Positions 8,544 to 49,963 of a stretch of 64,000 nucleotides of DNA are shown here, one piece after another (within the stretch, counting starts at the first letter, position 1; each line of letters begins with the position of its first letter). Origin of the DNA: an uncultured archaeon (GTDB taxonomy: Archaea; Asgardarchaeota; Hermodarchaeia; Hermodarchaeales; Hermodarchaeaceae); assembly GCA_964347045.1 (NCBI GenBank), contig CAYFXC010000001.1, positions 160,001-224,000 on the forward strand, read 5' to 3'. Made by a program: the position numbers and the translations under genes. The notes beneath the pieces were generated by a model. The model ran no database searches, had not been told where the DNA came from, and was given only the letters and a program-made list of their open reading frames with translations.

Positions 8544-9368
8544 GTGACATCGACAGGAAAGAAATTGCCTGACCATAAGTTTTCGATGAGTGACAAAATT
8601 TGGCTTCTCCAATCCCCAACACTCAAAACAGCGTACGCTGTACTTGAAGATGCAATTTCTCAGAAACGATTTATCCAAATAATCGGTAGTTGCTTTGTTG
8701 AATATCAAGGACGGGCACGATCAGTTCTTACTGAAGGAGAACGTCTAATTCTGCTGAAACGTGATGGAACAATTCTGGTTCACAAAGAGAGTGGTGTTGA
8801 ACCAGTTAACTGGCAGCCACCTGGCGCAACAATTAAAGTGTTTTTCGAAGATGATGCCCTTTTTCTATTTGCAAATCGCGCTAAACCCCGTGAAACGGTT
8901 CGTATCGAATTCTCTTCTCTCACGATGGTGAGTGCAAGCCTTGTTGACGATCCTGGCGAATTCAGTATGTACTTGACGGAGGCTGAAATGCAGCAAGTTC
9001 TAAGCGCTCATCCTGAACTGATTGAACCGGGTCTTCGAACAATCAGTAGAGAACGACAGGTTGTACCAGGATTCATCGACATATTTGCACGTGATAGTGA
9101 AGGTCGGTTGGTAATCATCGAAGTTAAACGGCGTCGAGCCAACAGTGACGCCGTGCATCAACTTCATGGTTATATTAAGAGTTTTCAAACCGATGAATCA
9201 ACCAAACTCCGAGGCATTCTCGTTGCGCCAAGTCTTACTAAAGGCACCCAAACGTTACTCGAACAACTCAAGCTAGAATATCGGAAAATTGAGCCACAAC
9301 AATGCGCAATTTATCTTCATCAAACAAGCTCGCGCAAGCTAACTGATTTTCTATCGGATATAGATTAA
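8544..9368 (+). CDS. nucS: Mismatch endonuclease NucS/EndoMS
   Basis: YQGRARS, K.DGTILVH, EPVNWQPPG, GFIDI, IIEVKR, AVHQL.GY. Confidence 0.95.
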   Translation: MTSTGKKLPDHKFSMSDKIWLLQSPTLKTAYAVLEDAISQKRFIQIIGSCFVEYQGRARSVLTEGERLILLKRDGTILVHKESGVEPVNWQPPGATIKVFFEDDALFLFANRAKPRETVRIEFSSLTMVSASLVDDPGEFSMYLTEAEMQQVLSAHPELIEPGLRTISRERQVVPGFIDIFARDSEGRLVIIEVKRRRANSDAVHQLHGYIKSFQTDESTKLRGILVAPSLTKGTQTLLEQLKLEYRKIEPQQCAIYLHQTSSRKLTDFLSDID

Positions 9369-9376
9369 CAGTTAGG

Positions 9377-9892
9377 CTAACTAATACACGACCATGCTAT
9401 TTGTCGGAAAGCATCTGTGACACCTTGCCCCTCCTTAGCACTGGTTTCGAAATATCCCCATCCAAGCTGCTGAGCATAAGCCATACCCTCCTCGGTTGTG
9501 GCTTGCCGTTGATCCACCAAATCCACTTTGTTTGCTAATAAAACAGTGGGCACAGTACCAGTTACCTGCGAGACCTCTGAAAACCATTCAGGAATAGCTT
9601 CAAACGTTCGACGGCGCGTAACATCATAGACTAAAATTACACCAGCGGCACCACGATAAAAGACAGGACGTACTGAACTGAAATGCGGTTGTCCAGCCAG
9701 GTCCCATAACTGTAACCGTACTAATGTATCACCGAAATTCAACTCTTTCACTGCGAACGAAGTACCCACAGTCATGATGTAGGATTCTCGAAAGTGCCCT
9801 TCGGTGTAGCGTATAATGAGACTTGTCTTCCCAACTGCACCATCACCGACGACACAGACTTTGAGTACGTATTGGCGTTGTTGCATACTCAT
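9377..9892 (-). CDS. Rab-like small GTPase
   Basis: G1 GDGAVGKT, G3 WDLAGQ, G4 NKVD, G5 ETSAK; RabF-like motifs RLQLW, FYRGA, LVYDVT. Confidence 0.93.
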   Translation of the reverse strand: MSMQQRQYVLKVCVVGDGAVGKTSLIIRYTEGHFRESYIMTVGTSFAVKELNFGDTLVRLQLWDLAGQPHFSSVRPVFYRGAAGVILVYDVTRRRTFEAIPEWFSEVSQVTGTVPTVLLANKVDLVDQRQATTEEGMAYAQQLGWGYFETSAKEGQGVTDAFRQIAWSCIS

Positions 9893-13228: not shown

Positions 13229-14767
13229 TCATTTAGTTCTTCCTTTCTTTTCAAATTTCTTAGTCATAGTTTCAAAATCTTCTCCAAAAGCCGTTTCTTT
13301 AGTTGTTCGTTTTCGGACCTGAATGAAAACTGGAAACCGAGTAGCCTGGCCAACTACTAATGCTTCTCCAACACTAAGGCTTGAAATAGACGTCAAAGTT
13401 GCTTTTGTGATTTTTTCTGATGTAGCTCTAATGTGATCTAAGTCATAGGGGTTAGTAATTCTAAGAAATATGTTAGATCCACATTGTGAGAGAACTGTGG
13501 TTGAGAGTCGAACTGGTCGTTGTGAAATAATACACAAAGAGAGGTTATATTTACGACCTTCTCGGGCAATAGTTTCAATTATTCCCTTTGAAAAAGCTAG
13601 GGCACGGCGTGCTTCAGGACAGAATTGATGAGATTCCTCGAGAAACACAATTGTAGGAGGTATTTCCTCATCTCGTCTCAAGTCGAATAAATGTCTAAGA
13701 ACAGCATCGACAATGATTTGCTTCTTTTGAAGACTCACCGTTTCACTCATATCAAGTATAACTCCATGGCCAGATTTCATTAACTTCTTCCATTCTGGTG
13801 TCGAAGTCTTTCCGAAGAGATTGAGACTTTGGAGATTATCTAACCATCCCAATAGTGCTTCACGCGTTCGAGTGTTTATCGAAGGATCCTTTTCTAGCGC
13901 TTCAATCAAATCTCCTAAATCATAGGGTCTTCCTTTTCGAACACTACGTAGTGTTCGAATAATACGTGTCAGTTCACGAACCTGGATTGTTCCCATATCT
14001 GGAGAATATATCGCAAAGGATTTTGCACTCATTCGTGGTGTTGCTATCTCAACTAGAGGGCTCCGAATTACTACGAGGCGTTTTTCAATGTTTTTTCCTT
14101 TGATTTCTTGAGTGTCTGCAAACCCTGTGTATTCACCATGAACGTCAATTACAAGTAATGCTGGACGCCCTTGAGCCACTCTTCTTGATAAGAGTTCTTC
14201 GAGCATAACAGAAGCGGCATAACTTTTTCCAGCTCCACTCATTGCCAAGAGTGCAACGTGCTTTTGATACATTTTTGTCAAATCAAAAGTCGCAGGAATA
14301 TTATGAAATAGTAAATGACCAAGCTCAATTCCCTCTTCAGCAAATCCAAGAAAACGTGACAAAATTTTTGGGTCTGGTGAAGAAACAATAGCGCCTGGCG
14401 AGGGAGGATACGTAATTCGGTGAATCTGCCCATTATCAAAAATCCCTAAAGGATTTGCTTCGGCTAACACGTATTCCCATCGGTCAATAGGAAAAATCGC
14501 TCCAAAGGGTCTTCCTGACCGTGTAAATTCATGTACGGCGTCAACTTGCGAAAAATAGCGGTTCGTCTTGAATACATGCTCAACATGAGCGATGACTAAT
14601 CCTTCTTCAGTTTCAACAGAAACGTATTGTCCTACGTGAACGGGTATCTCATTCTTAGTGTTTTGTTCATCACGTTTTCCAATGACAAAGGAAATCTTTT
14701 CTGTTGACGGGCTATCTTCAGTGCATACAACAGTTCCAAGCGATTCAGAGTTCATTTGAGTCTTCAC
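13229..14767 (-). CDS. herA: HerA ATPase/helicase
   Basis: N-terminal HAS barrel, HVALLAMSGAGKSY, IDVHGEY, EESHQF, IAREGRKY, ISQRP. Confidence 0.92.
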   Translation of the reverse strand: MKTQMNSESLGTVVCTEDSPSTEKISFVIGKRDEQNTKNEIPVHVGQYVSVETEEGLVIAHVEHVFKTNRYFSQVDAVHEFTRSGRPFGAIFPIDRWEYVLAEANPLGIFDNGQIHRITYPPSPGAIVSSPDPKILSRFLGFAEEGIELGHLLFHNIPATFDLTKMYQKHVALLAMSGAGKSYAASVMLEELLSRRVAQGRPALLVIDVHGEYTGFADTQEIKGKNIEKRLVVIRSPLVEIATPRMSAKSFAIYSPDMGTIQVRELTRIIRTLRSVRKGRPYDLGDLIEALEKDPSINTRTREALLGWLDNLQSLNLFGKTSTPEWKKLMKSGHGVILDMSETVSLQKKQIIVDAVLRHLFDLRRDEEIPPTIVFLEESHQFCPEARRALAFSKGIIETIAREGRKYNLSLCIISQRPVRLSTTVLSQCGSNIFLRITNPYDLDHIRATSEKITKATLTSISSLSVGEALVVGQATRFPVFIQVRKRTTKETAFGEDFETMTKKFEKKGRTK

Positions 14768-14775
14768 CTTTAATT

Positions 14776-15954
14776 TTAATGAAATGGCATCCTTTCACGG
14801 CGGAGTTTTAATACACTCTGGGGATATCCTAGCCGATTGGCTAATTGTGTAAAAAGAAAATCAAGATCATGTTCAATTAACCGGGCTTGAGAGTCAGCAT
14901 CGATTAGCACAGTAGGAAGCGCAAAGCCCTCATTATTTGAAGACATTGGAAATAACATCGCGCTAACTTTCTCAACAATTCGAATTGGGTCATAAGCTCC
15001 AGTGAGAATTTCAATTCGTAAAGGATAATCAAACTTGGCCGTTCGGAGATAAATACAAACAATATTTTTGCTAGTCTGTATGCTCTCGTCGCCGGATTCA
15101 AGTGAATCATCGATATTTAATTCGTTTAATCGGAGAATTGGCGAACGTTCTCCCACGTCTAGGATTCTGAAAAATAAATCTGTGTCGTAACTGGTTCGCA
15201 AAATCGATCGATAATCCATCTGTAACAACGGTTTCAACGCGGGATATTTATTTATCAAATGTGGAAGAATTTCACCTAGAATCTTAATGAACCGTTGACT
15301 TCGACTATCTTTCACAACACCAGCAAGAAGCGTCCCAGTTTCTTGAGCTTTTTTATAGAGCTCTTCATACAGCTTTGAAATCAGTTGAAACTTGGTTGAA
15401 AACATTGACTGACTTGGTGGGCGGTCACTTAAATGTGGACTCAGAGAGCCGTCTAGTAAAAGGAGCTCTACTGGATGGTGATCTTGGACACGGATTGCCA
15501 ATTCAAGTTCTGACTTGAGTCGTTCAAGGGAAGCGCTTACGTCTGCTTCGCGCCAAGAGATGGGATTGAATTCTGCTTTTACGGTTGGGGGCGTTGTTTT
15601 TTCAGGGAAATAGATTGCTGCTACTCGGTTTGATGGAGTATATTCAAAAATAGTGGCACAAGCTCGAGTAATTACTAGCTCGATACCTCGTAGGGTTTTT
15701 TTGAGTAATCCTCCATCAACTCCACCTACACGAAGTCCGGTTAAATCTATAGGCTTCACTGAATTGGCTAATTGATTATCAACAAGATAGTTTTGGGCTA
15801 GTGGTAGGTTCTGATGAAGATTTAGCTTGTTTCGTTCACTTCGAAGAATTGAAGCAAAGGTATTTCTTTTCTTTTCATAGGCTTGAATTTGCTCAGCGAT
15901 TTTCTGAATTGCTTTATCTAGCGGCCAAAGCTCCTGAACTGATTTCATATACAT
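14776..15954 (-). CDS. nurA: NurA 5'-3' nuclease
   Basis: GVDGG, LLLDGSL, GVVKDS, P.VLIDAD; directly upstream of herA. Confidence 0.9.
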   Translation of the reverse strand: MYMKSVQELWPLDKAIQKIAEQIQAYEKKRNTFASILRSERNKLNLHQNLPLAQNYLVDNQLANSVKPIDLTGLRVGGVDGGLLKKTLRGIELVITRACATIFEYTPSNRVAAIYFPEKTTPPTVKAEFNPISWREADVSASLERLKSELELAIRVQDHHPVELLLLDGSLSPHLSDRPPSQSMFSTKFQLISKLYEELYKKAQETGTLLAGVVKDSRSQRFIKILGEILPHLINKYPALKPLLQMDYRSILRTSYDTDLFFRILDVGERSPILRLNELNIDDSLESGDESIQTSKNIVCIYLRTAKFDYPLRIEILTGAYDPIRIVEKVSAMLFPMSSNNEGFALPTVLIDADSQARLIEHDLDFLFTQLANRLGYPQSVLKLRRERMPFH

Positions 15955-23084: not shown

Positions 23085-23555
23085 CTAACCCTTCTCGAGT
23101 TCTCCCAATGCAGCTTTAAGCTCTTCCCGCTCAGCGTCGGTCTTCCCTGCTGCTACAGCAGGCTTTTCAGCCATAAACTCATCAAGAACTTTCGCTAGCT
23201 CAGCAGCGGCCTTCATCATGGTTAAGCGTATCATTCCAATATTTACTTCCTTATCAGTAATTACACACAATACGCCTTTTCCTGCACCGGCTGCAAAAAT
23301 TTTACCATCACCAAACTCTGATGTCACGATTGTTAAATCACCGACATCTAAACTCTTCCCTTGTTCTTCACTAGCACAAAACACGGCACTCGCTATTGCG
23401 CCAATGCCATCTACATCCACTGGATAATATGAGAACTTAGAGACGTGAGCGATGGTTAGTCCTGTTCTATCGACGAGGATGGTCTTCTTGATTCCTGGTT
23501 CGGATTTGATGACATCGGAGAGGATTTCATCAAATTGCCGTACGGTTATGGACAC
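23085..23555 (-). CDS. Roadblock/LC7 protein with C-terminal helical extension
   Basis: ILVDRTGLTIA, IGAIASAVF, NIGMIR, tail AEREELKAALGELEKG. Confidence 0.88.
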   Translation of the reverse strand: MSITVRQFDEILSDVIKSEPGIKKTILVDRTGLTIAHVSKFSYYPVDVDGIGAIASAVFCASEEQGKSLDVGDLTIVTSEFGDGKIFAAGAGKGVLCVITDKEVNIGMIRLTMMKAAAELAKVLDEFMAEKPAVAAGKTDAEREELKAALGELEKG

Positions 23556-24847: not shown

Positions 24848-27800
24848 GTGGCTTATTTACGTCAAATTTCAATTCAAGGGTTTAAAAGTTTCAGTCCAAA
24901 AAAAACCACTATTGATCTAAGTAGGGGTTTTACTGCAATCGTTGGTGAAAATGGCTGTGGTAAAAGCAACATTTTGGATGCTGTTTGCTTTGTACTTGGT
25001 CGTTTGAGTAGCAAATCTTTGCGTGCTGAGAATTTTGCTTCATTGCTATTTAATGGTGGTTCTGGTAATTCTCCCGCAAAATTGTGCCGTGTTAGTCTCG
25101 TTTTTGATAATACTGATCGCCAATTTCCCATTGATGCAAATGAAATAACAATAAGTCGAGAAGTCGATGAAACTGGAATTAGTGCATATCGAATAGGTGG
25201 CAAACGGGTTACGCGTACCGAAATGATTGATACAATAGCAGTTGCTGGGTTACATCCTGAAGGTCATAATATTGTAATGCAGAATGAATTAGCAAATGTC
25301 ATTACTATGACGCCAACCGAAATTCGTCAAATTGTTGAGGGAGTTGCAGGTATTTCCGTTTTCGACGAAAAGAAGCAGCAGATTGAAAGTGAATTAGTGA
25401 AAGTCGATCAAAACCTACACATGGTTCAAATGCGTACCGAAGAAATTCGTCAAGAATATTCTCGGTTGGAAAAGGATAGGAAAGATGCTCTCCGATGGCG
25501 GGAAATTACTGAAAAACTAACACAATTCGAAAGAGATTTGATTTTTGCGGAACTAGCCCGAGTTGAAGAACGTCTTACCGAAATGAAAAAAGAGTTTGTT
25601 TCATACTCTGATAATATTAAGGAACTTGAAACCAAACGCCAACAGGCTAAGAATCGTAAACTCGAACTTGAACAAATTGTAAAAACGGACGAACAAAAAA
25701 TCAAACAATTAGATCAAAAACAACGAAAAAGGGAAATTGAGGAAACGCGTATTCGAGAAATTTTGAAAGGACTGCAATTAACTTCTGAAAAACTTTCTCA
25801 AAATAAAAAATTACTTGCAGCAAGTGTTGAGCATCTCGAATCAGAAGAATCGAAGGAAAAGAATCAGTCCGCACAACTAGAAATGGAAATTGCAGCTCTC
25901 AACACTGACCAAGCTTCACACCGAGAACAAATTGAACCTATTCGAACGCGTCTCTCAAAATTATCTGAACAAACTGACTCTCCAGACACCGAATATGTAT
26001 CACTCAGAGAACAAATCTTAACACTAACTGAAACTATCGAAGCAAAAAAGAGTGCAATTGGCGAAACCACGGCATTAAACCAAGTTACTGAAAAAGGGAT
26101 TATTGAACTCATGGCGCAGATTGAGGATAGCTACGCCCTTCTTCCTGAGCAGGAATATTCCTTAGATAAAACAAAAACCCAGTGCCAAAGCATCGAAAAC
26201 GAACTCCACGATCTCCAAGCAGAGGTAACCACCCTTGAAAAACAAAAGAGCGAATTTCAAACTTCGATGCAAGAAAAACAAAACAAACAAGAAGAGCTCA
26301 ACCAATTAATTCAAGCTTCGAAAGAAGAACTCCTTGAAGCGCAAACTAGGCTAAAGACAATACGCGAATTCAAAAAGTATGGGCTAACGCGAAAAGCAGC
26401 AACTGATGCGGTTCTAAAATATGCAAAAGAAAACAAAGCTACAGGTGTTTATGGTACTCTAGGTAGCTTAGGTAAGACTTCCACCAAACACGCGACCGCT
26501 CTAGAAGTAGCAGGTGGGGGAAGACTTGATTTTATCGTTGTTGATAATGAAGAAACTGCTTCAAAATGTATTGAATATCTAAAAAAGAGCCATATTGGTC
26601 GTGCAACCTTTATCCCACTCGACACAATCAAAACCAATCCATACTCGTACAAAGGTGAACAAAAAGGCGTTGTAGGAAACGCACTCGAGCTTCTTACTTT
26701 TGAAGATCAATTTCGACCTGCATTTGAATTTGTATTTGGTAGAACTCTAATTGTGAAAGATTTGAAAATCGCACGCAATGTCAAAGCGGCTGGCGTTCGA
26801 AAAATCACAATTGACGGTGACATAGTTGAGCCCAACCGTACGTTAACTGGAGGGTTTTACAAAGGACTCTCCTCATTGACTTTGGAAGAAGAAGCAAGAA
26901 TTCCAGAGTTGCAGAAAAAACTCAAGGAGCTCCGCACACTTCATTCTAAAGAAGTGATTGAGTACCAGAAATGGACAGAAAAAACAAACCAATTAGAAGA
27001 TCAACTAAGAGAAAAGCAGAAGATGCTTGATGGTTTGAAAATAAAGTACAATAAAGCAGATGAAATGGCAACGGCTCAAGAAGAAGCTCTCATTGATTTC
27101 AAAGAGAGTATTTCAAAATTGCGTGAATCCTTGAAAGATAAAGAAAAAACCAAACAAACATTAGGACAGAAATTACAGACAGACCAATTAGAAATTCAAG
27201 AGCTAATCAACAAACGGGAAGAACTTCAACAAAGCCTTTCAACCTTAGAAAGAAGCAGCCTAGACCCCAATCTTACTGGGCTTCGTAAACAACTAGACAA
27301 GTATGAATCTCAACTACAGGAAACACAACTCAAACTAACTGAAAAAACAAGCGAAGCTAGACACACAAAAGGTGAAATCAATCGTATTTCTCAAGATCTC
27401 ACAAGTACGAAGACAGAGTTGGAACAAAAAGATAAGGAACTAATAGCTACAACTAAACAGATTGAACAAAATCAAACAGCTCTGACCAAAATTGAAGAAG
27501 ACGTCGTTAATCTAAGCGAACAGATTAGGGAGCTTGAAAATAAGATTATAACATGTGAGGCTGAAAACCGGCAAATAAACAATACAATTGATGAACTTCT
27601 TGATAAGATAAACGACGAAAAAATGAATCGCTCCAAAATCGAAGGGCGGATTGAACACTGGCAAGAACGGTTTACCGCTCAAAAAGAGAAGACAGTGGGA
27701 TTAGAACCACCATTACTTCCTATGGAACCTGCTCAAGTACAAAGCCTGCGTAGACAAATTTCAACTTTGCAAGAAGAAAGAGATCAAATGGGTCTTATTA

Positions 27801-28411
27801 ACCAAAAAGCCGTTGAACGTTTCGAAGAAATTCGTCACGCTTACGATGAAATCTTAGAAAAAGAAAGCAGAATTCGGGAAGAACGCGAAGCCATTCTAGA
27901 TGCGATGCGAAAGGCAGAGGAAGAAAAATTCCGCGTTTTTATGGCTGCATTTACAAATATCTCTAACAACTTTGCCGACGTCTATCAACAACTTACTCAA
28001 GGAGAGGGTCAACTCGAATTGGAAAATCCTGAAAATCCATTTTTAGGTGGCATTCGAATGAAAGTACGACCAGCTGGAAAACGCGTCCAATACCTCGATG
28101 CTCTTTCTGGCGGTGAAAAAGCCCTCACTGCCTTAACCTTTATGTTTGCACTGCAACTACATCAACCGGCGCCTTTCTATTTCCTCGATGAAATCGATGA
28201 GGCACTCGATCCCAACAATACAGATAGAGTCGCTCGATTAATTGTAAACCTTTCTGAAAACTCACAATTTATTGTTATCTCACACAACGAAATTTCAATT
28301 CGATTAGCAAAAACGCTTCTTGGTGTAGCATTAGCAGATGGTATATCACAGGTCTTTTCAGTACAATTTGAGGAAGGCCTACTCATGATTGAAGGAACAA
28401 GCAAAACCTAA
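24848..28411 (+). CDS. smc: Chromosome segregation protein Smc
   Basis: GFKSF, GENGCGKSN, coiled coils, hinge (GVYGTLG, GRATFIPL), LSGGEK, FLDEID. Confidence 0.97.
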   Translation: MAYLRQISIQGFKSFSPKKTTIDLSRGFTAIVGENGCGKSNILDAVCFVLGRLSSKSLRAENFASLLFNGGSGNSPAKLCRVSLVFDNTDRQFPIDANEITISREVDETGISAYRIGGKRVTRTEMIDTIAVAGLHPEGHNIVMQNELANVITMTPTEIRQIVEGVAGISVFDEKKQQIESELVKVDQNLHMVQMRTEEIRQEYSRLEKDRKDALRWREITEKLTQFERDLIFAELARVEERLTEMKKEFVSYSDNIKELETKRQQAKNRKLELEQIVKTDEQKIKQLDQKQRKREIEETRIREILKGLQLTSEKLSQNKKLLAASVEHLESEESKEKNQSAQLEMEIAALNTDQASHREQIEPIRTRLSKLSEQTDSPDTEYVSLREQILTLTETIEAKKSAIGETTALNQVTEKGIIELMAQIEDSYALLPEQEYSLDKTKTQCQSIENELHDLQAEVTTLEKQKSEFQTSMQEKQNKQEELNQLIQASKEELLEAQTRLKTIREFKKYGLTRKAATDAVLKYAKENKATGVYGTLGSLGKTSTKHATALEVAGGGRLDFIVVDNEETASKCIEYLKKSHIGRATFIPLDTIKTNPYSYKGEQKGVVGNALELLTFEDQFRPAFEFVFGRTLIVKDLKIARNVKAAGVRKITIDGDIVEPNRTLTGGFYKGLSSLTLEEEARIPELQKKLKELRTLHSKEVIEYQKWTEKTNQLEDQLREKQKMLDGLKIKYNKADEMATAQEEALIDFKESISKLRESLKDKEKTKQTLGQKLQTDQLEIQELINKREELQQSLSTLERSSLDPNLTGLRKQLDKYESQLQETQLKLTEKTSEARHTKGEINRISQDLTSTKTELEQKDKELIATTKQIEQNQTALTKIEEDVVNLSEQIRELENKIITCEAENRQINNTIDELLDKINDEKMNRSKIEGRIEHWQERFTAQKEKTVGLEPPLLPMEPAQVQSLRRQISTLQEERDQMGLINQKAVERFEEIRHAYDEILEKESRIREEREAILDAMRKAEEEKFRVFMAAFTNISNNFADVYQQLTQGEGQLELENPENPFLGGIRMKVRPAGKRVQYLDALSGGEKALTALTFMFALQLHQPAPFYFLDEIDEALDPNNTDRVARLIVNLSENSQFIVISHNEISIRLAKTLLGVALADGISQVFSVQFEEGLLMIEGTSKT

Positions 28412-29186
28412 TGAAAATCAGATAATACATCAGGTTATATATGATGCATTTACCAGATACTACGAAAATGTGAAACAAAGGGAGAACAAAAAGCCGTTGA
28501 CAGAAAGTAGCCCTGAGCCATTCTGGTTTCATCAACCGTGGCGAGTCCTTACTGACATTCTTGAATTACAAAAAATTAGTCCATGGGAACTTGACTTAGC
28601 TGAGCTCGTTAATGGGTTTATTGGTCGATTACTTACTGCTGAATATATAGACTTTCGTATTTGTGGTCGTGCGCTCCTATCCGCTGCCATACTTCTTCGA
28701 CTGAAAACGGAATATCTGCTTGAATTTGGTCGAGAGGAAGAAGAAATTATTCGTGTAATCGAAGAAGACATCTTCCTTCCGCCAATCCGGCCTCCCTTTC
28801 GGCAAAATATCCGTCCAACATCATCAGCAGAATTTTTTGAAGCATTACGTGAACTTGTTTTCCCTCCACAAAAACGAAGAAGAAAACTTACCGTGACAAG
28901 TGATTCTTTACTTTCAATACCTCAATTTGGCGGCTCACAAATTGAGCTAAACAAATCAATGAAACAGATATACGCGCAATTAACCAAAGCAAGTCTTGAG
29001 CACAATCCAATCTCTTTTATTAAATTTGTACATGGAATGTCACACATCGAAATCATCCGGGTTTTTCTCACCCTCCTCTACTTGTTAGGTGATGGTAAAG
29101 TTCGTGTTAATCAGGATCAACAATTTGGAAATATTATGATCTGGGTTCAAGAACCTCACAGTGAGGAGGCCAGTACTGGTGGATGA
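28389..29186 (+). CDS. scpA: Kleisin ScpA
   Basis: ISPWELDL, GRALLSAAILLRLK, FLTLLYL...Q..FG.I; follows smc. Confidence 0.88.
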   Translation: MKEQAKPNENQIIHQVIYDAFTRYYENVKQRENKKPLTESSPEPFWFHQPWRVLTDILELQKISPWELDLAELVNGFIGRLLTAEYIDFRICGRALLSAAILLRLKTEYLLEFGREEEEIIRVIEEDIFLPPIRPPFRQNIRPTSSAEFFEALRELVFPPQKRRRKLTVTSDSLLSIPQFGGSQIELNKSMKQIYAQLTKASLEHNPISFIKFVHGMSHIEIIRVFLTLLYLLGDGKVRVNQDQQFGNIMIWVQEPHSEEASTGG

Positions 29187-29730
29187 CGCTACACGATTAG
29201 TTGAAGCCGCGCTCTATATAGCTGGACGACCTCTCACCATTCATGAAATTCAACAAGCCACGTTAATATCTACTATAAAGAAAGTTCGGGAAAGTATTCA
29301 ATTCCTAATTGATGAATACGAAATTCGTTCTGGAGCTTTAGAAATTGTACGACTTCCCCACCAACGATTTGTTCTCCAATTAAAACCAAATCTAAGTGAA
29401 CACGTTGGCAATCTAGCCCCTCAAGGTTTACTTTCTTTAGGGGAGTTAAAAACCCTCATCTATGTTGCTCTTTCTCAACCAATTCTCCAATCAGACGTTG
29501 TTGTGTACCGCGGTTCCCATAGCTACAAGCATATTAAAAACTTAGAACGTCATGGCTTCATTGAATCCACTCCATTTGGACGAACCAAAGAACTCACAAC
29601 AACAGAATTGTTTGCGGATTACTTTGGCTTCGATTATGAAGTTGACAAGCTAAAAGGTCAGCTCCGAAGAATGATTAGGCAAATTCGGATAGAACAATCT
29701 GAATTAGCCGCCGCAGCAGAGGAAAAATAA
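29179..29730 (+). CDS. scpB: ScpB
   Basis: VEAALYIAGRPL, TL.YVA..QPI, RG, TTELFADYFG. GTG 29179 follows GAGGAGG. Confidence 0.92.
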   Translation: MDDATRLVEAALYIAGRPLTIHEIQQATLISTIKKVRESIQFLIDEYEIRSGALEIVRLPHQRFVLQLKPNLSEHVGNLAPQGLLSLGELKTLIYVALSQPILQSDVVVYRGSHSYKHIKNLERHGFIESTPFGRTKELTTTELFADYFGFDYEVDKLKGQLRRMIRQIRIEQSELAAAAEEK

Positions 29731-29831
29731 TCAGCAAATAATCGAATCAATTCGATGTTTACCGCACACTTTGTAAGTTTATATCTTCTTCTATAAATCC
29801 AACAGAAGCCAAATAACTCGAGGTCCGTAGT

Positions 29832-30308
29832 GTGGTTCGTCCTCCTCAATCTTCTTTATCTCAATCTACCCATAGAAATGAAACTTCTAGCATTGCTCCG
29901 CCTGAAGGAATCTACTCATTATTTATTCTCAAGGAATCAGGATGCCCATTTTATTATCGCATATTTACACCAAAGGAAGATCATCCTGACCCCGCCATTC
30001 TTGGAGGGTTTTTCATTGCGCTCTCACTTTTTGCTAAAGAGGTTACTGATGGACAAATTGAAACTGTTACAACTGAGCCCTGCAGATATACCTTTCATCC
30101 ACTTCAAAATGGGCTATTAGTAATTAGTAGTGCAAAAACGTTCAACCCAATATTTATTGAAGCAATTGCTAAGCGCATCGCAAAGTTATTTCTCACCAAA
30201 TATCGTGATCGACTTATCAAACCTCAACCGGCTTCTATTTGCGCACCTGATCTCAATCAGCAAATCGAACAAATATTCGGTGAAACATCAGTGAAAACCT
30301 CGCAATAA
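29832..30308 (+). CDS. Longin-like domain protein
   Basis: IYSLFILKESG.PFYYR.F...DPAILGGFFIAL..FAKE...IE pattern typical of Asgard longin folds. Confidence 0.72.
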   Translation: MVRPPQSSLSQSTHRNETSSIAPPEGIYSLFILKESGCPFYYRIFTPKEDHPDPAILGGFFIALSLFAKEVTDGQIETVTTEPCRYTFHPLQNGLLVISSAKTFNPIFIEAIAKRIAKLFLTKYRDRLIKPQPASICAPDLNQQIEQIFGETSVKTSQ

Positions 30309-30327
30309 TGCTAGGGTGTAACTTGAG

Positions 30328-31368
30328 CTAACAGACACGAGGAATAGCTTCTGCCCACGGGTGTTGAATAATTCTAGAACCGCCAACTTCTGTTCGCATC
30401 ACTACAAGACCTGGGCGGTCATCTTTTGCCTCTCCAATGATTTGCGCATCTTTTCCATATTTGTTGTTACGAATAACTTTTAGAACGCTCTCAGCTTTCT
30501 CGGCCTCCACTGCTATTAGGGCTTTTCCTTCACAAGTTACTTGCAAAGGGTCAAGACCAAGCATTTGACTTGCTGCTAGCACTTCTCGTTGATATGGCAG
30601 TCTAGTCTCATCTATTACCAAACTAACATTCGACTTTTTTGCGAATTCATTTAGTGTTGCTGATAGTCCTCCACGTGTAGGATCCTTCATGGCATGAATG
30701 CCACCTACTTGTAATGCTGAATTAACTAATGACCACAGTGGCGCAATATCAGATTTTAGATCAGTTTCAAAGGAAAGTCCTTCACGGCTTGCTAACAACG
30801 CAATTCCATGATCCCCTATGGTTCCGGTCATTATCAGTTTGTCACCGACTTTTACACCGCTATCTGTGATTGCCTTTCCTTTGTCAATTACTCCAAATCC
30901 AGTGGTACATATTATCATTTCATCAAGCCCGCCAGTTGGTATTATCTTCGTGTCTCCTGCAACAACTGCTACTTGGTCTTCTGCTGCAGTTGAAGCCATT
31001 GATGTTAAAATCGTGTGAAGTGCTTCGATGCTAAATCCCTCTTCAATTACCAAAGCACTAGTCATGGCCAATGGTCGGGCACCCATCATCGCCACATCAT
31101 TAATTGTACCTGCAGCGGCAAGGCTCCCAATATTTCCACCTGGAAAAAACAACGGTGATACCGTATGACTGTCGGTAGAAACCACAACCTCACATTTTTC
31201 TAAAGGAATTGAAGCTCCGTCATCTGCTTCGGGTAATCCAATTCCCGTTTCAAAACGATTGAGCGTGAAATGGGGAAAAATAATATCCGCTAGAAATTGA
31301 GCCATTGCACGACCGCCAGCTCCATGGGCTAATTCAACAAGGGGCGTTCCTTTTGACATTGTAATCAC
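30328..31368 (-). CDS. hypE: Hydrogenase maturation protein HypE
   Basis: HGAGG, TDSHTV.PLFFPGGNIG, GDTK, DPTRGG, C-terminal PRVC. Confidence 0.96.
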   Translation of the reverse strand: MITMSKGTPLVELAHGAGGRAMAQFLADIIFPHFTLNRFETGIGLPEADDGASIPLEKCEVVVSTDSHTVSPLFFPGGNIGSLAAAGTINDVAMMGARPLAMTSALVIEEGFSIEALHTILTSMASTAAEDQVAVVAGDTKIIPTGGLDEMIICTTGFGVIDKGKAITDSGVKVGDKLIMTGTIGDHGIALLASREGLSFETDLKSDIAPLWSLVNSALQVGGIHAMKDPTRGGLSATLNEFAKKSNVSLVIDETRLPYQREVLAASQMLGLDPLQVTCEGKALIAVEAEKAESVLKVIRNNKYGKDAQIIGEAKDDRPGLVVMRTEVGGSRIIQHPWAEAIPRVC

Positions 31369-31430
31369 TACTGATTGACTATATGAAAGTCAAAGCGCTA
31401 GAACCTAAAGTCTTTACCATTATCGGGTTG

Positions 31431-31445
31431 GCGAAACGTTTATAG
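31431..31445 (+). promoter_or_regulatory. Candidate BRE/TATA of rps8e
   Basis: gcgaaacg-tttatag about 40 nt upstream of the likely ATG. Confidence 0.5.
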
Positions 31446-31485
31446 CTCCTTGTCAGTGTCTCGTCTCAAATCCGAGGTCACAGAA

Positions 31486-31866
31486 ATGCCCCTATGGCAA
31501 GGTAAATCAAAACGGTACCACAGTGGTGCTAGACGGCGGTCGTCGCGCAAGCACCGTAAATTCGAAAGAGGTAGTCAAGCCACAGAAACCATAATGGGAG
31601 AAAAGAAGCTCCGATTTAAGAGAGCGCTAAGTGGGGATAATAAACTTCGTTTATTAGCTGCCTCTTATGCTAATGTTACTGATAAAGCCACAGGGGAATC
31701 AGAAAAAACAAAAATTATCCAAGTCCTCCAAAATCCGGCAAATGTTGATTTTGATCGTCGTGGAATCATAACAAAGGGAGCTATCATTGAAACCGAAAAA
31801 GGGAAAGCCGTCGTAACCAGTCGTCCAGGTCAAAATGGAGTAGTGGACGCGATTAAAATTGAATAA
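31486..31866 (+). CDS. rps8e: 30S ribosomal protein S8e
   Basis: WQGKSKR..SG...RKFERG...NPAN..F.RRGIITKGAIIET...VTSRPGQNG. Start refined to ATG 31486. Confidence 0.96.
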   Translation: MPLWQGKSKRYHSGARRRSSRKHRKFERGSQATETIMGEKKLRFKRALSGDNKLRLLAASYANVTDKATGESEKTKIIQVLQNPANVDFDRRGIITKGAIIETEKGKAVVTSRPGQNGVVDAIKIE

Positions 31867-31875
31867 ATAAATCAG

Positions 31876-32253
31876 CTAGCTATTTTTTACTTCAGCTTGA
31901 ATATCCTTGATGATGCATTCTCTTCCCTGAATTACATCTACATCCTTAGTTTTACATTTTGAACAAGCCAAAGATGATAAGATTTCATAAAGGGCCCCTT
32001 TTTGGGTAACCGCGGATTCAACACCGCATTTTCTACAACGTATCTTTGTTGCTAGTGGCTCAATAGTTACTACGGCTTCTTCTGCAATTGAATCCTTCGA
32101 CGCCATTTCAATGCCAAAGATTAATTGGTCATGATTTAGCATTGATAATTTTCCTATTTGAAGTGTGATTCCTACTACCTTCGTTGCACCATAGCTTTTT
32201 GCAGCACGTTTCACTGCTTCCAGGATACTAACTGCAGTCGAAAATTCATGCAT
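31876..32253 (-). CDS. hypA: Nickel metallochaperone HypA
   Basis: MHEFS start, CRKC and CSKC zinc site, GRE. Confidence 0.95.
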   Translation of the reverse strand: MHEFSTAVSILEAVKRAAKSYGATKVVGITLQIGKLSMLNHDQLIFGIEMASKDSIAEEAVVTIEPLATKIRCRKCGVESAVTQKGALYEILSSLACSKCKTKDVDVIQGRECIIKDIQAEVKNS

Positions 32254-32352
32254 GATATCTCAATCCCTCTATTCAAAACTTTTCAACCTTGCTCCCTTAC
32301 AAAAAAAGCAAAACTTTTGTGCTACGAATGGTGGCTATGAAGGCGGTTTAGA

Positions 32353-32655
32353 ATGCGTAAGTCAGGAAATTACTATATTTATCCCGCGTACTTCGAGGCA
32401 AATCGAAGTCGCCATTCTGGACGGCGGGTTCCAAAAAAACTCGCCTTGACAGTAGTAACTACATCGATGATAGCGAAAGCCGCAGAGCGACTTGGTCTAA
32501 AATATGCCGTAGAATCAAAAGCGCGATACCCTGCAAGTTGGTGGAGTGCATCTGGGGTTGTGCTCATTCAGAAACTTGATAATCAGACCAAAACTCAGCT
32601 TCTAAAAGAACTAGCAAAAATCATGAGAACTTTGAAAGTAGTAAGCAAAAAATAA
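32353..32655 (+). CDS. srp19: Signal recognition particle 19 kDa protein
   Basis: IYPAYF..NRSR.SGRRVPK, ARYP..W...G, KTQLLKELA. Confidence 0.93.
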   Translation: MRKSGNYYIYPAYFEANRSRHSGRRVPKKLALTVVTTSMIAKAAERLGLKYAVESKARYPASWWSASGVVLIQKLDNQTKTQLLKELAKIMRTLKVVSKK

Positions 32656-43866: not shown

Positions 43867-45072
43867 GTGGGCGAGAATATCATCGAAAAGGCATTATTAG
43901 GTGCTTCGGTTTTTAAAAACGAAGAGACTCTTCATCCCGCATTCATTCCCCCTGAACTTCCCAAACGCGAGAATCAACTCGTACGGCTTAGCCATACTTT
44001 TAAGTCTTTACTCAACAAGGATGGAGCCTATGCAGTGAACGTTGCTGTTGTTGGCAAACCGGGAACTGGAAAAACGGTTTCTATCCGATATTTTGGGCGT
44101 GGACTAGAAAAAGCTGCTGCGAAGCGTAGCATCAAAGTCCGGTTCGAATATTATGACTGCTTTATGTTTAGAACAAAAAGTGCGATTCTCCGAGATTTAC
44201 TCACTGAACGTTTCAAAGTCACAAGTCGTGGTTTTTCTGATGAGGAAATTACAACAATGATTAATCGACGTCTAACTCGGGAAAATATTCGATTAGTGTT
44301 GTGTCTTGACGAAGCCTATTTACTTGGACAAGATCTTCTCAGCCTTATTCATGCTAGTGAAGTAGCCAAACATGGACAAGCATTTATCTCAACCCTAATA
44401 GCTTGCCGCGTAGTTGATTGGCAAAACACCTTGAGTTTTCCACTTTCAGGTCGACTTCATGACCGAATTGATATGCCATCCTATGATCAAGATGAACTCT
44501 ATAACATCTTTAAATATCGATCAGAGCTGGCGTTTCACAAAGACGTCGTGACCGATGACATTCTCCACATGGTTGCGAACATAGCTGCATCCACGCAGAA
44601 TGCACGTCATGGTATTGAAATGCTGTATTTAGCTGGGAAGGCAGCTGACCGGTACAACGTTCGCCCAATAACTCCTGAACTAATTCGAAGGGCCAAACAA
44701 GAAGTCTATTCAGAATTACGTTCTGATGTTCTCTATGGTCTCCGTGACCAAGAAATACTCGTACTCGCGGCACTTACCCGGGAATTGAAAGCCGAAACGG
44801 CTAGTTCAACTATTATTGCAAAGATCTATGAACGCTATCAGCTAATTTGTGAAGAATTTGGGGTAAAGAAGCAAGCCCTACCAACGTTTCGAAAAACCGT
44901 TGATGCATTAGTGGCTCTAGGTATCATTGGAAAAGTAGTAGAAGGCATCGGAACTGGTCAACGTGGACGACGTGCACGCTTAACTCTCATGGATATCCCA
45001 GTCGAAGTTTTTGATGAGCGCGTTAGTGAAATCTTACAACGCCGTCAATCTATGGAAAGTAATATCGACTGA
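43867..45072 (+). CDS. cdc6: Orc1/Cdc6 replication initiator
   Basis: VFKNE..L.P.F.P..LP.RE, GKPGTGKT, LCLDEA, NAR, C-terminal wHTH with G.RGR. Confidence 0.9.
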   Translation: MGENIIEKALLGASVFKNEETLHPAFIPPELPKRENQLVRLSHTFKSLLNKDGAYAVNVAVVGKPGTGKTVSIRYFGRGLEKAAAKRSIKVRFEYYDCFMFRTKSAILRDLLTERFKVTSRGFSDEEITTMINRRLTRENIRLVLCLDEAYLLGQDLLSLIHASEVAKHGQAFISTLIACRVVDWQNTLSFPLSGRLHDRIDMPSYDQDELYNIFKYRSELAFHKDVVTDDILHMVANIAASTQNARHGIEMLYLAGKAADRYNVRPITPELIRRAKQEVYSELRSDVLYGLRDQEILVLAALTRELKAETASSTIIAKIYERYQLICEEFGVKKQALPTFRKTVDALVALGIIGKVVEGIGTGQRGRRARLTLMDIPVEVFDERVSEILQRRQSMESNID

Positions 45073-45656: not shown

Positions 45657-47715
45657 AGAAATCGACTACATAACCCGATATGAAGAGTTTCTAAAATCTT
45701 ACAAAACAGAAGACGGCGAAACTCCTTACAACGATGCAATCGCGCGGCTTAGTTTGGAAAAACTCATCTCAATATCCATTGATTTCAATCAACTGCTTAC
45801 ATTTGATCCAGAACTAGCCGCTGCAACAAAAGAGAACCCACAAAGATCAATTGAAGCTGCTTCTGCCGCCATCCGTCGCATTCTTCGGGTCGTTGATTCC
45901 GATTATTCTGAAACCATCGAAAACTTACACGCACGCTTCAAAGAAGTCCCTGATCGTGTATCAGTTCGCTTCATCCGAGCTGAACACATTGGTCAATTAA
46001 TCATGGTCGACGCACTTGTCACCCGCGTCAGTGATGTAAAACCGCTTCTCGTGGAAGGTATTTTCCAGTGCCGACAATGTCAAGAAATCCTCTACGTCCA
46101 GCAAGCCAATCAATTCATTCTCCCAACTCTTTGTACTAACGATGCTTGTCGAAGTAAAGGACCATTCGACCTTATCCCTGAACGCTCAAAATTCGTTGAT
46201 TGGCAAAAAATCCGACTTCAAGAGAAACCTGAAGAACTTCCACCAGGCGCCCTCCCGCGAGCGCTTGATTGTGTACTTCAAGATGATTTGGTCGATATCG
46301 CCCGTCCTGGCGACCCCTGTCGTGTCGTTGGCATCTTACGATCAACACAAGACACCACCGCTCGTACACGACGTAAAGCCCCCACCTTCAGCGTCTTCTT
46401 AGCCACCAACTACGTCGAAGTCTCAGAAAGAGAAGCTGATCGTGTCGAAATCGACCCTAAAGAAGAAAAACAAATCCAAAAACTCGCCCAAGACCCACTC
46501 ATCCACCGAAAACTCGTCAACTCCATCGCCCCCTCCATCTACGGGCTCACAGACATCAAAGAAGCCGTGTGCCTCCTCCTTTTCGGTGGAGTTAGCAAAG
46601 TCCTCGCCGATGGCATCAAAATACGTGGCGACTCCAACATCCTTCTCGTAGGAGATCCTGGAACAGCTAAATCGCAACTTTTGAAGTATGTAGCTCAGAT
46701 TGCGCCACGTGGGCTCTATACTTCTGGAAAGGGATCAACCGCTGCGGGTTTAACTGCTGCTGTTCTTCGTGATCCTGATACTGAAGGGTTTGCCTTGGAA
46801 GCAGGTGCTCTTGTTCTCGCTGATCGTGGAACTGCTTGTATCGATGAATTCGATAAGATGCGGCCTCAGGATCGTACGGCAATACATGAATCGATGGAAC
46901 AGCATACTGTGAGTATAGCCAAGGCAGGGATTGTTGCGACGCTGAATGCGCGTACGGCGATTTTAGCTGCCGCGAACCCGAATCTCGGGCGTTATGTGCC
47001 AGAACGGTCGTTTGCGGAGAATGTGAATTTGCCGGTGACCCTTTTGTCACGGTTTGATCTAATTTTTACGCTGACCGATTTGCCTGAAGCAGAACGAGAC
47101 GAACGGACTGCTGAACATATAATCTCTTTACATCAACAGAAGGGTCAATCTAAAGATCCTCCAATTCCAGCGGATTTGCTTAGGAAGTATATCGCGTTTG
47201 CTCGGCGTAGTTTATCACCTAGCCTCTCTGATGAGGCATTGAGTGTGTTGAAAGATTTCTATTTGGGGATGCGGAAATCTGGGGAACGTGAGAATGCACC
47301 AGTACCAATTACAGCACGGCAGTTGGAGTCGCTAATTAGGCTAACGGAGGCACATGCGAAGATGGCGCTTCGTGAAAAGGTTTTGGCTGAAGATGCACAG
47401 GCAGCGGTTCGTCTTGTCCAAGTCTCATTGCAACAGGTTGGGTTTGATGCGGAAACGGGTCAATATGATATTGATAATATTATGATTGGACGTGCCAAAT
47501 CGCAACGGGATAAATTGCAGGCGATTTTGACGATGATTCGAGAACTCGAAAAAGAATCTCCCGGGGGTGTTCCTATCGAGAAGTTGGAAGAACGGGCTGA
47601 GCTAGACGGGGTTTCTGCAGACTTTGTTCGGCAAGCGGTGGTTCAACTTCGTGACAAAGATGGGTTGGTCTTTGAACCTCGTCCCGGGCGTCTGAAGTAT
47701 ATCAAAGGTGCCTAA
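45640..47715 (+). CDS. mcm: Replicative helicase MCM (no intein)
   Basis: CRQC/CTNDAC zinc finger, IAPSIYG, GDPGTAKS, IDEFDKM, AAANP, SRFD, ITARQLE. Confidence 0.98.
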   Translation: MTLVTEEIDYITRYEEFLKSYKTEDGETPYNDAIARLSLEKLISISIDFNQLLTFDPELAAATKENPQRSIEAASAAIRRILRVVDSDYSETIENLHARFKEVPDRVSVRFIRAEHIGQLIMVDALVTRVSDVKPLLVEGIFQCRQCQEILYVQQANQFILPTLCTNDACRSKGPFDLIPERSKFVDWQKIRLQEKPEELPPGALPRALDCVLQDDLVDIARPGDPCRVVGILRSTQDTTARTRRKAPTFSVFLATNYVEVSEREADRVEIDPKEEKQIQKLAQDPLIHRKLVNSIAPSIYGLTDIKEAVCLLLFGGVSKVLADGIKIRGDSNILLVGDPGTAKSQLLKYVAQIAPRGLYTSGKGSTAAGLTAAVLRDPDTEGFALEAGALVLADRGTACIDEFDKMRPQDRTAIHESMEQHTVSIAKAGIVATLNARTAILAAANPNLGRYVPERSFAENVNLPVTLLSRFDLIFTLTDLPEAERDERTAEHIISLHQQKGQSKDPPIPADLLRKYIAFARRSLSPSLSDEALSVLKDFYLGMRKSGERENAPVPITARQLESLIRLTEAHAKMALREKVLAEDAQAAVRLVQVSLQQVGFDAETGQYDIDNIMIGRAKSQRDKLQAILTMIRELEKESPGGVPIEKLEERAELDGVSADFVRQAVVQLRDKDGLVFEPRPGRLKYIKGA

Positions 47716-49963
47716 CATTAGGTGGGAACAAGCTATAAGACAGATCGCTCGGTTACCGCTTGAAAAATCAATTAAGACCTATTTCAAAGAGAAAGGCATT
47801 ACAACATTATATCCTCCTCAAGAAGCGGCTCTTAAAACCGGTGTCCTTGATGGAAAAAATGTGGTGTTAGCGATTCCGACCGCTTCTGGGAAAACGCTCA
47901 TTGCTGAGTTATGTATGTTGAAAGCAATCGTTGAACGAGGAGGAAAGGCCTTGTACCTTTGTCCACTCCGTGCACTAGCTTCGGAGAAGTTTGATGAGTT
48001 TCGTCCTTACTCTGGGCTTGGGGTGAATGTGGGTATTACTACCGGGGATTATGATACAATTGAAGAAAAATTCGGTGCTTATGATCTTCTCATCTGTACA
48101 AATGAACGCGCCGACTCGCTACTGCGGCATCGCGCAAAATGGATGTCAGACATCGCCATTGTTATTGCTGATGAGGTTCATCTAATTAACGATCCAAGTC
48201 GAGGTCCTACACTTGAAGTGGTACTCGCTAGATTACGGCAAATTGCCCCCAACGCCCAAATTCTTGCGCTTAGTGCGACTGTAGATAACGCTGATGAACT
48301 TGCTGAATGGCTTAAAGGTCAAGCCGTGGTTAGCGACTGGCGTCCCGTTTCTCTACGTGAAGGTGTTTACTATGAGGGCAGTGTTTTTTTTGCTGAAGGT
48401 GACGAAGAAAGCTATACACCAGCAACCTCGTTTCCCATCGGTGATATCACTCGGCGAGTTCTCAAAAAGAAAGGCCAACTCCTCGCGTTTCTAAATACAC
48501 GGCGGTCCGCAGTTCGAACCGCCCAAAAACTCATTTCAGTAACCGCACCACGCTTGAAACAACGTGAACAAAAACAGTTAGGAGACTTGGCTGAACGATT
48601 GCTCCAACTGGGAGAAGTCACCCAGGTTACAGATACACTTGCCCGACTTCTCCGAGCCGGAGTGGCGTTTCATCATGCAGGGCTACGTTATTCCGAACGC
48701 AAACTTATCGAAGAAGCATTTCGCAACAATCTAATCAAAGTAGTATGCGCCACTCCAACCTTAGCCAGTGGTGTCAATCTTCCAGCCCGTGTTGTGATTA
48801 TCAGGGAATATCGGCGATATGATAGACTTGAGGGCTATCAACCAATTCCTGTGTTGGAATACAAACAAATGGCTGGGCGTGCTGGCAGACCAAAATACGA
48901 TACAACGGGGACAGCCATTCTAATTTCTCGAAATGAGGGCGAACGCGATTTTCTCCTAGATTACTATACTCTCGGAACTCCTGAAAGTATCATTTCAAAA
49001 CTGGCTACTGAATCTGCACTCCGAAGTCATGTGCTTTCAACGATTGCCATGAATTATGCCTCAGATAAAGCTGGTATCATGGAGTTCATCAGGCAAACCT
49101 TCTTTGGGCATCAACGCGACCCCGATGAAGTCGAATATATGATTGATTTAATTGTGGATTTCCTCAAAGACGAAACTCTCCTTGAGCAACAAGGAAGGCG
49201 ATTATTTGCCACTTCCTTTGGAAGGCGAGTATCCCAGCTTTACATTGATCCAAAATCTGCGGTTGTAATTCGCGATGGCCTTGCAAGAGCAATCAAACAA
49301 TTTGAGCACACCACAGACGTTTCTTTCCTACACCTAATCTGTCATACGCCTGATATGGCAAACCTCTATCTTCGGCGTGGAGACGATGAGCGGTATCATG
49401 ATTACGTCATCGAGCACATCGATGAATTTCTCACACCCATTCCTGATCCACGGTATCATCGAGAGCGATATGAGTTCTTTTTAGCGGAAGTGAAAACCGC
49501 GCTTATGGTAAAAGCTTGGATCGAAGAACTCCCAGAAGATCAAATTGTGAATCAGTTTAAAATTGGGTCTGGTGACCTTCTTCGATTAGTAGATACGCAA
49601 AAGTGGTTGATATATGCATGTCATGAACTCGCACCCATTTTTGGGTATCGGAAAATTGTTCCGGATCTTGAAGAATTGGAACTCCGTGTAAGGTATGGTG
49701 TAAGGCGGGAACTCACCGAGTTGGTTGAACTTCAGGGCATTGGCCGTGTCCGTGCCCGGTATCTCTTTCGTACTGGTTTTGTTTCAAAGAACCGAATACG
49801 CGATGCACCTTTAGACCAACTAGCGGCGGTTCCTACGATTGGGGCCCAAATTGCCATGTCTATTAAACAACAATGTGGTGGGGCTATCAATCCAGAAGAA
49901 GAACAAGCGTTAAAGGACACACGGCGGCAAACTACAAGACAAACCCAATTAACACTAGATTAG
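47708..49963 (+). CDS. hel308: Hel308/Hjm Ski2-like helicase
   Basis: LYPPQ, PTASGKT, DEVH, LSAT, FHHAGL, TPTLASGVNLPA, QMAGRAGRP, GIGRVRAR. Confidence 0.95.
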   Translation: MPNIRWEQAIRQIARLPLEKSIKTYFKEKGITTLYPPQEAALKTGVLDGKNVVLAIPTASGKTLIAELCMLKAIVERGGKALYLCPLRALASEKFDEFRPYSGLGVNVGITTGDYDTIEEKFGAYDLLICTNERADSLLRHRAKWMSDIAIVIADEVHLINDPSRGPTLEVVLARLRQIAPNAQILALSATVDNADELAEWLKGQAVVSDWRPVSLREGVYYEGSVFFAEGDEESYTPATSFPIGDITRRVLKKKGQLLAFLNTRRSAVRTAQKLISVTAPRLKQREQKQLGDLAERLLQLGEVTQVTDTLARLLRAGVAFHHAGLRYSERKLIEEAFRNNLIKVVCATPTLASGVNLPARVVIIREYRRYDRLEGYQPIPVLEYKQMAGRAGRPKYDTTGTAILISRNEGERDFLLDYYTLGTPESIISKLATESALRSHVLSTIAMNYASDKAGIMEFIRQTFFGHQRDPDEVEYMIDLIVDFLKDETLLEQQGRRLFATSFGRRVSQLYIDPKSAVVIRDGLARAIKQFEHTTDVSFLHLICHTPDMANLYLRRGDDERYHDYVIEHIDEFLTPIPDPRYHRERYEFFLAEVKTALMVKAWIEELPEDQIVNQFKIGSGDLLRLVDTQKWLIYACHELAPIFGYRKIVPDLEELELRVRYGVRRELTELVELQGIGRVRARYLFRTGFVSKNRIRDAPLDQLAAVPTIGAQIAMSIKQQCGGAINPEEEQALKDTRRQTTRQTQLTLD

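Follow-up and report, generated by a model that had tools for sequence, protein, structure and literature searches.

What does an abrupt reversal of strand composition inside a conserved replication gene record? In mcm of an uncultured hermodarchaeon, on the 64,000-nucleotide stretch of DNA analyzed here (the window), silent sites turn from C/A-rich to G/T-rich, and the initial annotation read this switch as a possible intragenic replication origin, one of many focal sites spaced every 7 to 25 kb along the chromosome. The hand counts of third codon positions behind that reading proved exact on recount (46381-46560, C35 A20 T4 G1; 46681-46860, T32 G11 A11 C6; Fisher P 5e-13, for two hand-picked windows). 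We scored each codon's C/A versus G/T ending, corrected for the genome's own codon usage, across all 2.58 Mb. The mcm switch reached z 6.7 at a width of 60 codons and z 8.5 at 100 codons, the genome maximum at both widths. Contig shuffles gave a maximum z of ~5.0, below the mcm switch, and 0 of 5,000 synonymous shuffles of mcm, the codon-shuffled control that had been proposed, matched the observed switch. The change point fell at codon 339 (range, 335 to 347), within one ORF and near 46660-46680 as described, and the skew indeed faded with distance (decay lengths of 524 ± 148 bp on the left and 924 ± 218 bp on the right). The C/A-to-G/T flip in mcm is real and is the strongest within-gene switch of that kind in the genome. 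The suggestion that such flips share one polarity held only for the strong tail: within ORFs at 100 codons, there were 3 flips versus 0 reversed at a z of at least 6, 16 versus 10 at a z of at least 4, and 107 versus 103 at a z of at least 3. Since only strong flips are polarized, a genome-wide spacing of 7 to 25 kb is not borne out. A gapped-pair scan did not discriminate between polarities (31 versus 22 reversed, threshold 3.5). The window contains four element-linked sites.

The gene lies in the run cdc6-gins-mcm-hel308 (Table 1), and the MCM matches of most relatives are interrupted at residue 345. Alignment placed the relatives' inteins after residues 344, 371, 399, and 422, the known sites MCM-a to MCM-d, all four of which are vacant in the source genome. 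MCM-a, directly after the Walker A lysine K344 (GDPGTAK/S), is a named homing site (PMC10643990). The MCM-a intein of one relative, G013, contains a LAGLIDADG domain. The initial annotation had asked whether mcm orthologs flip at the same codon. The empty allele of G006 nearly does (codon 346 versus 339 here); in relatives with inteins the change point is often displaced to the occupied site, falling at codon 399 in G011 (MCM-c filled), at 427 in G005 and 422 in G001 (MCM-d), and at 377 in G007 (MCM-a and -b). Those of G012 (338) and G017 (447) are misfits that lie off their occupied sites. The N-terminal flanks of the relatives' mcm genes are mostly 80-100% C/A and the C-terminal flanks 3-28%, and the intein interiors are mostly ~50% C/A (37-64%, with one at 73%). 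The mcm flip is very probably the cumulative footprint of homing-type recombination at MCM-a.

Table 1. Features of the window referred to in the text (G numbers denote genomes of relatives)
Feature	Position	Strand	Basis or remark
nucS/endoMS mismatch endonuclease gene, proposed source of the bias	8544..9368	+	Pfam NucS_N, NucS_C; T. kodakarensis EndoMS 5GKE, E 1e-57
Empty site of a 30-nt bulge-helix-bulge (BHB) mini-intron, Ras-like gene 9377-9892	9768..9772	-	Insert at codon 41 in G013, G003, G008; BHB fold
herA-nurA	13229..15954	-	Pfam DUF87/HerA_C, NurA
Empty site of a 29-nt bulge-helix-bulge mini-intron, roadblock gene 23085-23555	23415..23418	-	Insert in G012 at codon 46/47; BHB fold
cdc6/orc1	43867..45072	+	Gene assignment; upstream gap without ORB-like motif or repeat
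mcm, intein-free allele, 691 aa	45640..47715	+	Pfam MCM domains; collinear with intein-free G002, G006
Left footprint, silent sites C/A-rich on + strand	46180..46671	+	81-83% C/A at codons 225-344; decay 524 bp
Empty intein site MCM-a, K344/S345, Ser codon TCG, flip center	46671..46672	+	527-529 aa inteins there in G013, G009, G007, G008, G017
Right footprint, silent sites G/T-rich on + strand	46672..47600	+	25-35% C/A at codons 345-604; decay 924 bp
Empty intein sites MCM-b (after codon 371), -c (399), -d (422)	46752..46906	+	Filled in various relatives
Empty intein site in hel308 (aa 352)	48760..48766	+	Intein in G015, G018; weak same-polarity flip, z 2.2/2.8

How an empty allele came to carry such a footprint can be approached through the codon for Ser345 (46672-46674). 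This codon is AGY in 26 of 27 MCM-a-occupied alleles and TCN in 32 of the 54 alleles scored as empty. The TCG found here, set against AGY in nearly all occupied alleles, makes simple intein loss unlikely; judged from the sequences, the mcm allele is therefore probably not a simple intein-loss allele, and flank exchange, reverse swapping, or cut-and-repair would be a more likely source of its footprint. The split in the Ser345 codon might reflect co-conversion of a marker or an allele that confers resistance.

A further 16 intein sites were identified solely from relatives, blind to the skew. Their occupied versions all show the same polarity (16/16; mean z 2.4), and the same sites, vacant in the source genome, have a mean z of +1.03 versus -0.03 at random positions (P 4.5e-5). 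Several vacant sites have no footprint in the source genome, such as the one in herA (13621, aa 382; z -1.4), which is filled in G008, G005, and G015. At 100 codons, intein genes hold the four strongest within-ORF flips (one in mcm, two in polD, one in polB); those that rank after mcm come from the source genome's own polD and polB inteins. In polD (contig C1 of the source genome, G000, 27291-32384), the C/A bias extends across the shared N-terminal half of the intein and ends at aa 1232, where a dimorphic C-terminal half starts (identity of 21-54% in G013 and G001 and 69-93% in G006, G008, and G009). Because the bias stops there, it acts on the homologous flanks of an exchanged non-homologous core. 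A third polD intein, divergent throughout, is found in G003, G011, and G014. The mosaic structure of the polD intein across the genus suggests that the nuclease half was swapped between occupied alleles.

Two more strong peaks adjoin LAGLIDADG-like ORFs, which we treat as tentative leads (Pfam and PHROGs were blank). At one of them, the actin gene (G000:C30:2903-5247) is 92-98% C/A in its middle and convergent with a 377-aa LAGLIDADG-like ORF that also lies beside actin in G013, with 76% identity. This ORF may encode a free-standing homing nuclease that targets actin; expression bias is another possible explanation of the actin peak. At the other (G000:C3:90560-93762), a 656-aa LAGLIDADG-like ORF with a C/A-rich N-terminal half and a neutral C-terminal part is followed by a G/T-rich hydrogenase gene, a layout like that of the polD intein. 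High expression of convergent genes was considered for both peaks and set aside, as both include LAGLIDADG-like ORFs.

The footprint is not limited to inteins. Of the other flips in the window listed by the initial annotation, those near 9750 (at 9776, z 3.1 and 4.4 at 60 and 100 codons) and 23430 (z 3.0 and 3.9) were confirmed at modest strength, and each lies at most about 15 bases from a mini-intron site that is occupied in relatives. The relatives' inserts at 9770 and 23416 form a 3-nt bulge, a 4-bp helix, and a 3-nt bulge, and the reading frame is restored on their removal. Genes carrying these 29-30 nt introns (L285:1831-1859 in G012; L294, L298, and L299 in G013, G003, and G008) would be annotated as broken. 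No endonuclease-bearing form of either intron was seen in the relatives, and no further such mini-intron was found among 139 genes with relatives' loci, most of them thinly covered. Two other flips fell away: that near 63130, in TtuA, has a z of 3.3/3.6 and is unconserved in relatives, and that near 17000 is non-significant (z of at most 2.0). A break in the TtuA gene of G009 is a run of N. A candidate at 15448, in nurA, was discarded as unconserved or non-significant.

Elsewhere in the genome, two flips are conserved at sites where no insert was seen. A Ras-like GTPase gene (G000:C11:25969-26514) turns from C/A to G/T, with a mixed zone at codons ~27-64, in 13 genus and 2 family relatives, and no insert was found at this flip in 16 relatives (15 by another count). 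The mid-gene flip of a porB-like gene (G000:C1:20856-21767) is conserved in G013, G003, and G008, with no insert there in five relatives. In G006, a TnpB gene lies ~560 bp downstream of the C11-type Ras-like gene. Three tRNA genes at G000:C1:236283-238518 stand beside same-polarity skew patches, possibly an integration hot spot, and at G000:C12:22841-23773 a C/A flank is followed by a ~900-bp low-GC gap without a long ORF and then by a G/T flank.

The distribution of mismatch repair genes offers a lead to the source of the bias. nucS is present in 18 of 19 family genomes, the source genome included, and the MutS_I domain was found in 0 of 19. Canonical mutS and mutL were not found in the source genome (89% complete), which has a MutS_V match without any MutS_I domain. 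The window also carries herA-nurA, which we take to be the end-resection machine. The mcm footprint has a z of 5-11 in Hermodarchaeia and 10.3 in Atabeyarchaeia-1; intein-bearing mcm genes of MutS-bearing genomes (n = 26) have a mean z of 0.46 and a maximum of 2.5, none with a strong footprint. Among the lineages surveyed, Thermococcales, Halobacteria, and Mycobacterium not included, strong footprints occur in three families that have NucS and in which MutS was not found, a comparison among related genomes set against few MutS clades. In the third of these (f14), G476 and G477 (91% complete; NucS, no MutS found) are saturated and G480 (complete; MutS and NucS) is unsaturated; the left four-fold sites of G476 (A37 C8 G0 T0) need a T-to-A transversion, as cleavage of T:T would predict and a model limited to transitions would not. 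NucS without MutS is insufficient, as Odinarchaeia and the sampled Thermoproteota intein carriers, in which no MutS was found, reach a z of 0.9-1.7 and Wukongarchaeum 2.8. The weak footprints in Odinarchaeia and Thermoproteota are perhaps due to rarer homing; among the Thermoproteota, three intein loci in all were found, of which one is clearly MCM, with no footprint. The position and polarity of the flips, their generality over insertion sites, the neutrality of the inserts, and the presence or absence of these genes were all observed directly.

We propose that the strand flip is probably not an origin but a mark left by many rounds of cutting and copying in which mismatches were corrected unevenly, and as to mechanism we lean slightly towards homing conversion filtered by NucS. 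The LAGLIDADG nuclease of the intein would cut the empty allele, and the ends would be resected 5' to 3', so that the 3'-ended strands (top on the left, bottom on the right) could pair with a slightly different donor allele. These 3'-ended strands are the C/A-rich ones, the top strand to the left of MCM-a and the bottom strand to its right. EndoMS/NucS has strong activity on G/T, G/G, and T/T mismatches, weak activity on T/C and A/G, and almost none on C/C, A/C, and A/A (PMC4838380, PMC6159521). In the heteroduplex, a recipient T or G facing G or T makes a G:T, G:G, or T:T mismatch that NucS would cut, so that donor C or A would be copied in; a recipient C or A (A:C, C:C, A:A) would go uncut and could survive. 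The recipient/donor combinations T/C, G/A, G/C, and T/A would each yield a cuttable mismatch and end as donor C or A, and the reverse cases would stay uncut. With cutting one-sided in this way, C/A would win on the strand whose 3' end faces the site. Many repeats would saturate silent sites over a few hundred bases, the fade would reflect the length of the conversion tract, and non-homologous inserts would stay neutral. MutS would repair both mismatch classes alike and create no bias. Of these steps, we infer the frequency of cutting, the geometry of the heteroduplex, and the resolution of the NucS cut towards the donor.

Several results bear on this model. As expected of biased conversion, the bias is centered on recombination sites and fades with distance, and it is confined to homologous sequence (the neutral inteins and the polD boundary), a feature also compatible with a mutational rival. 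In G035, a transition-only model fails (P 1.5e-9) and the NucS model fits (P 0.07). When C:A ratios were compared with predictions, which are rough (the background substitution rates approach saturation and were carried over to other lineages), conversion was favored in G035, both models fit G029, only the transition model fit the source genome, and neither fit G009, G011, or G012. The C:A ratio in Hermodarchaeia is 1.3 in the source genome and 5, 30, and 33 in G011, G009, and G012, versus a predicted 0.6; ratios so far above the prediction mean that a further bias is needed. A short MutY-like gene encoding only the catalytic domain occurs in the source genome (G000:C9:45023-45628) and in G009, G012, and G017 and was not found in G011; G477 has a similar gene, yet without the C excess. 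MutY as the cause of that excess is suggestive and inconsistent across genomes, and we did not adopt it. Mycobacterial NucS performs short-patch repair without homologous recombination (PMC11551744), which counts against the model.

The same footprint might instead be mutational. Repair synthesis running outward from the break could misinsert G and T by wobble pairing, and without MutS these errors would go uncorrected and leave the new strands G/T-rich. Such synthesis would give the correct polarity, neutral inserts, and a dependence on MutS absence. G/T errors dominate the replication errors of Corynebacterium (PMC6159521), and a G-rich error spectrum could explain why C so outnumbers A in Hermodarchaeia. 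However, its transition-only version is the one rejected in G035, and T-to-A changes would need T:T errors; all three footprint families have NucS, the enzyme that removes these very errors. To saturate a flank, very many synthesis events would also be required, whereas conversion would sort existing differences in each event. Error-prone synthesis is the less likely cause but a serious rival.

Some other asymmetry of recombination or repair at exchanged cassettes, such as a glycosylase, 3' trimming by proofreading, or ends-out replacement, could also be at work, with NucS incidental. Footprints both on an empty allele with TCG and within the polD intein would fit swapping in either direction, and the C excess is unaccounted for by the NucS model. 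However, of the known enzymes only NucS, with its published specificity (PMC4838380), fits all four favored changes, T>C, G>A, G>C, and T>A, and we regard these other asymmetries as improbable.

We return to the origin, or site of helicase loading, proposed inside mcm. The polarity of the flip matches the G/T richness of leading strands, cdc6 is 1.6 kb away, and the C11 Ras-like and porB flips have no insert in view. Yet the center is the MCM-a homing site, in Walker A, the most conserved coding motif, and in several relatives it shifts towards MCM-c or -d where these are occupied; in relatives the switch is split by neutral 1.6-kb inteins; the skew fades within 1 kb; and the footprint is missing in MutS-bearing Asgard genomes with inteins at the same sites. 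Neither an ORB-like motif nor a repeat was found at the switch (four simple patterns plus a repeat search; Asgard ORBs may differ), nor an AT-rich unwinding element in what is coding DNA of 42-54% AT. The gap upstream of cdc6, described before as lacking a clear ORB, likewise yielded no ORB-like motif, repeat, or AT-rich element. An origin inside mcm is thus very unlikely; an origin may still account for the C11 Ras-like and porB flips. What survives of the initial annotation is its broader idea of fixed sites that leave a local footprint: there are several sites with one polarity, and a cutting or resection site was the right kind of explanation, whereas replication origins are not supported.

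Equally improbable is deamination of resection-exposed single-stranded DNA at the break, a kataegis-like process. Breaks and resection are expected at MCM-a, and strand-asymmetric flanks are known from human meiotic hot spots (PMC7615360). However, the exposed top strand on the left should lose C and gain T, and its four-fold sites have C at 0.57-0.78 and T at 0.07-0.22. The polarity contradicts deamination, except if exposure in these cells falls on the 5'-ended strand. Least credible of all is that the switch is an assembly chimera or a product of codon selection or an mRNA hairpin, as many assemblies made independently show the same pattern, identity to the proteins of genus relatives is unbroken across the flanks (84-96% before, 85-92% after), and the bias crosses gene strands; a hairpin between C/A and G/U tracts was rejected (RNA fold z 0.33).

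We judge the chances evenly balanced that the footprint belongs to a general process, a strand-polar biased gene conversion favoring C/A over T/G, driven by NucS/EndoMS at every recurrent break in MutS-less archaea. If so, it would rewrite silent sites around such breaks, base composition by itself would be enough to locate homing or break hot spots, both current and former, even where the element is absent from every sampled genome (the Ras-like gene, porB, and actin), and natural genomes would record the invading strand and the length of the conversion tract. It would also reveal NucS action on archaeal recombination intermediates, a question that the papers cited leave open, and provide a strand-polar counterpart to GC-biased gene conversion. 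Skew flips would serve as a sequence-only marker of homing hot spots; they have led to two mini-introns in protein genes that are visible only in relatives. The process would caution against taking local skew inversions in Asgard genomes for origins, and it would make silent sites in the mcm, polD, polB, and actin genes of Hermodarchaeia non-neutral and convergent, a concern for studies of codon usage and DNA-level phylogenetics.

A strand-polar C/A versus G/T footprint at homing sites was not found in the literature, in a search that mostly did not cover subscription papers. What is new is the footprint at an empty site, its occurrence at mini-intron sites, its boundary at the dimorphic part of the polD intein, its association with MutS and NucS status, and a specific conversion model from which the polarity follows. 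The flips share the polarity of skew inversion with archaeal ORB origins but, unlike them, are local, intragenic, and numerous, lack an ORB or unwinding element, and follow mobile-element sites. The closest homing system is that of the Haloferacales, in which LAGLIDADG inteins use the same four sites, MCM-a to -d, empty and occupied alleles coexist, and flanks are co-copied (PMC10643990); co-conversion there is donor-biased, not base-biased as here. EndoMS/NucS repair cuts and spares the mismatch classes given above and acts on homeologous recombination, and its gene is in the window, but these papers on it do not describe it as filtering conversion directionally during homing (PMC4838380, PMC6159521, PMC8228993). 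Human meiotic breaks leave a similar mirror-image footprint, 1-2 kb around recurrent breaks; that footprint is mutational and the exposed strand loses C and A, whereas here the 3'-ended strand gains both, with silent sites near saturation (PMC7615360). For GC-biased gene conversion, the proposal is that heteroduplex mismatches are repaired unequally and that this drives silent sites near recombination sites (PMC3649680). The bias described here differs in favoring C/A over T/G, in being tied to one strand, and in reversing across the break.
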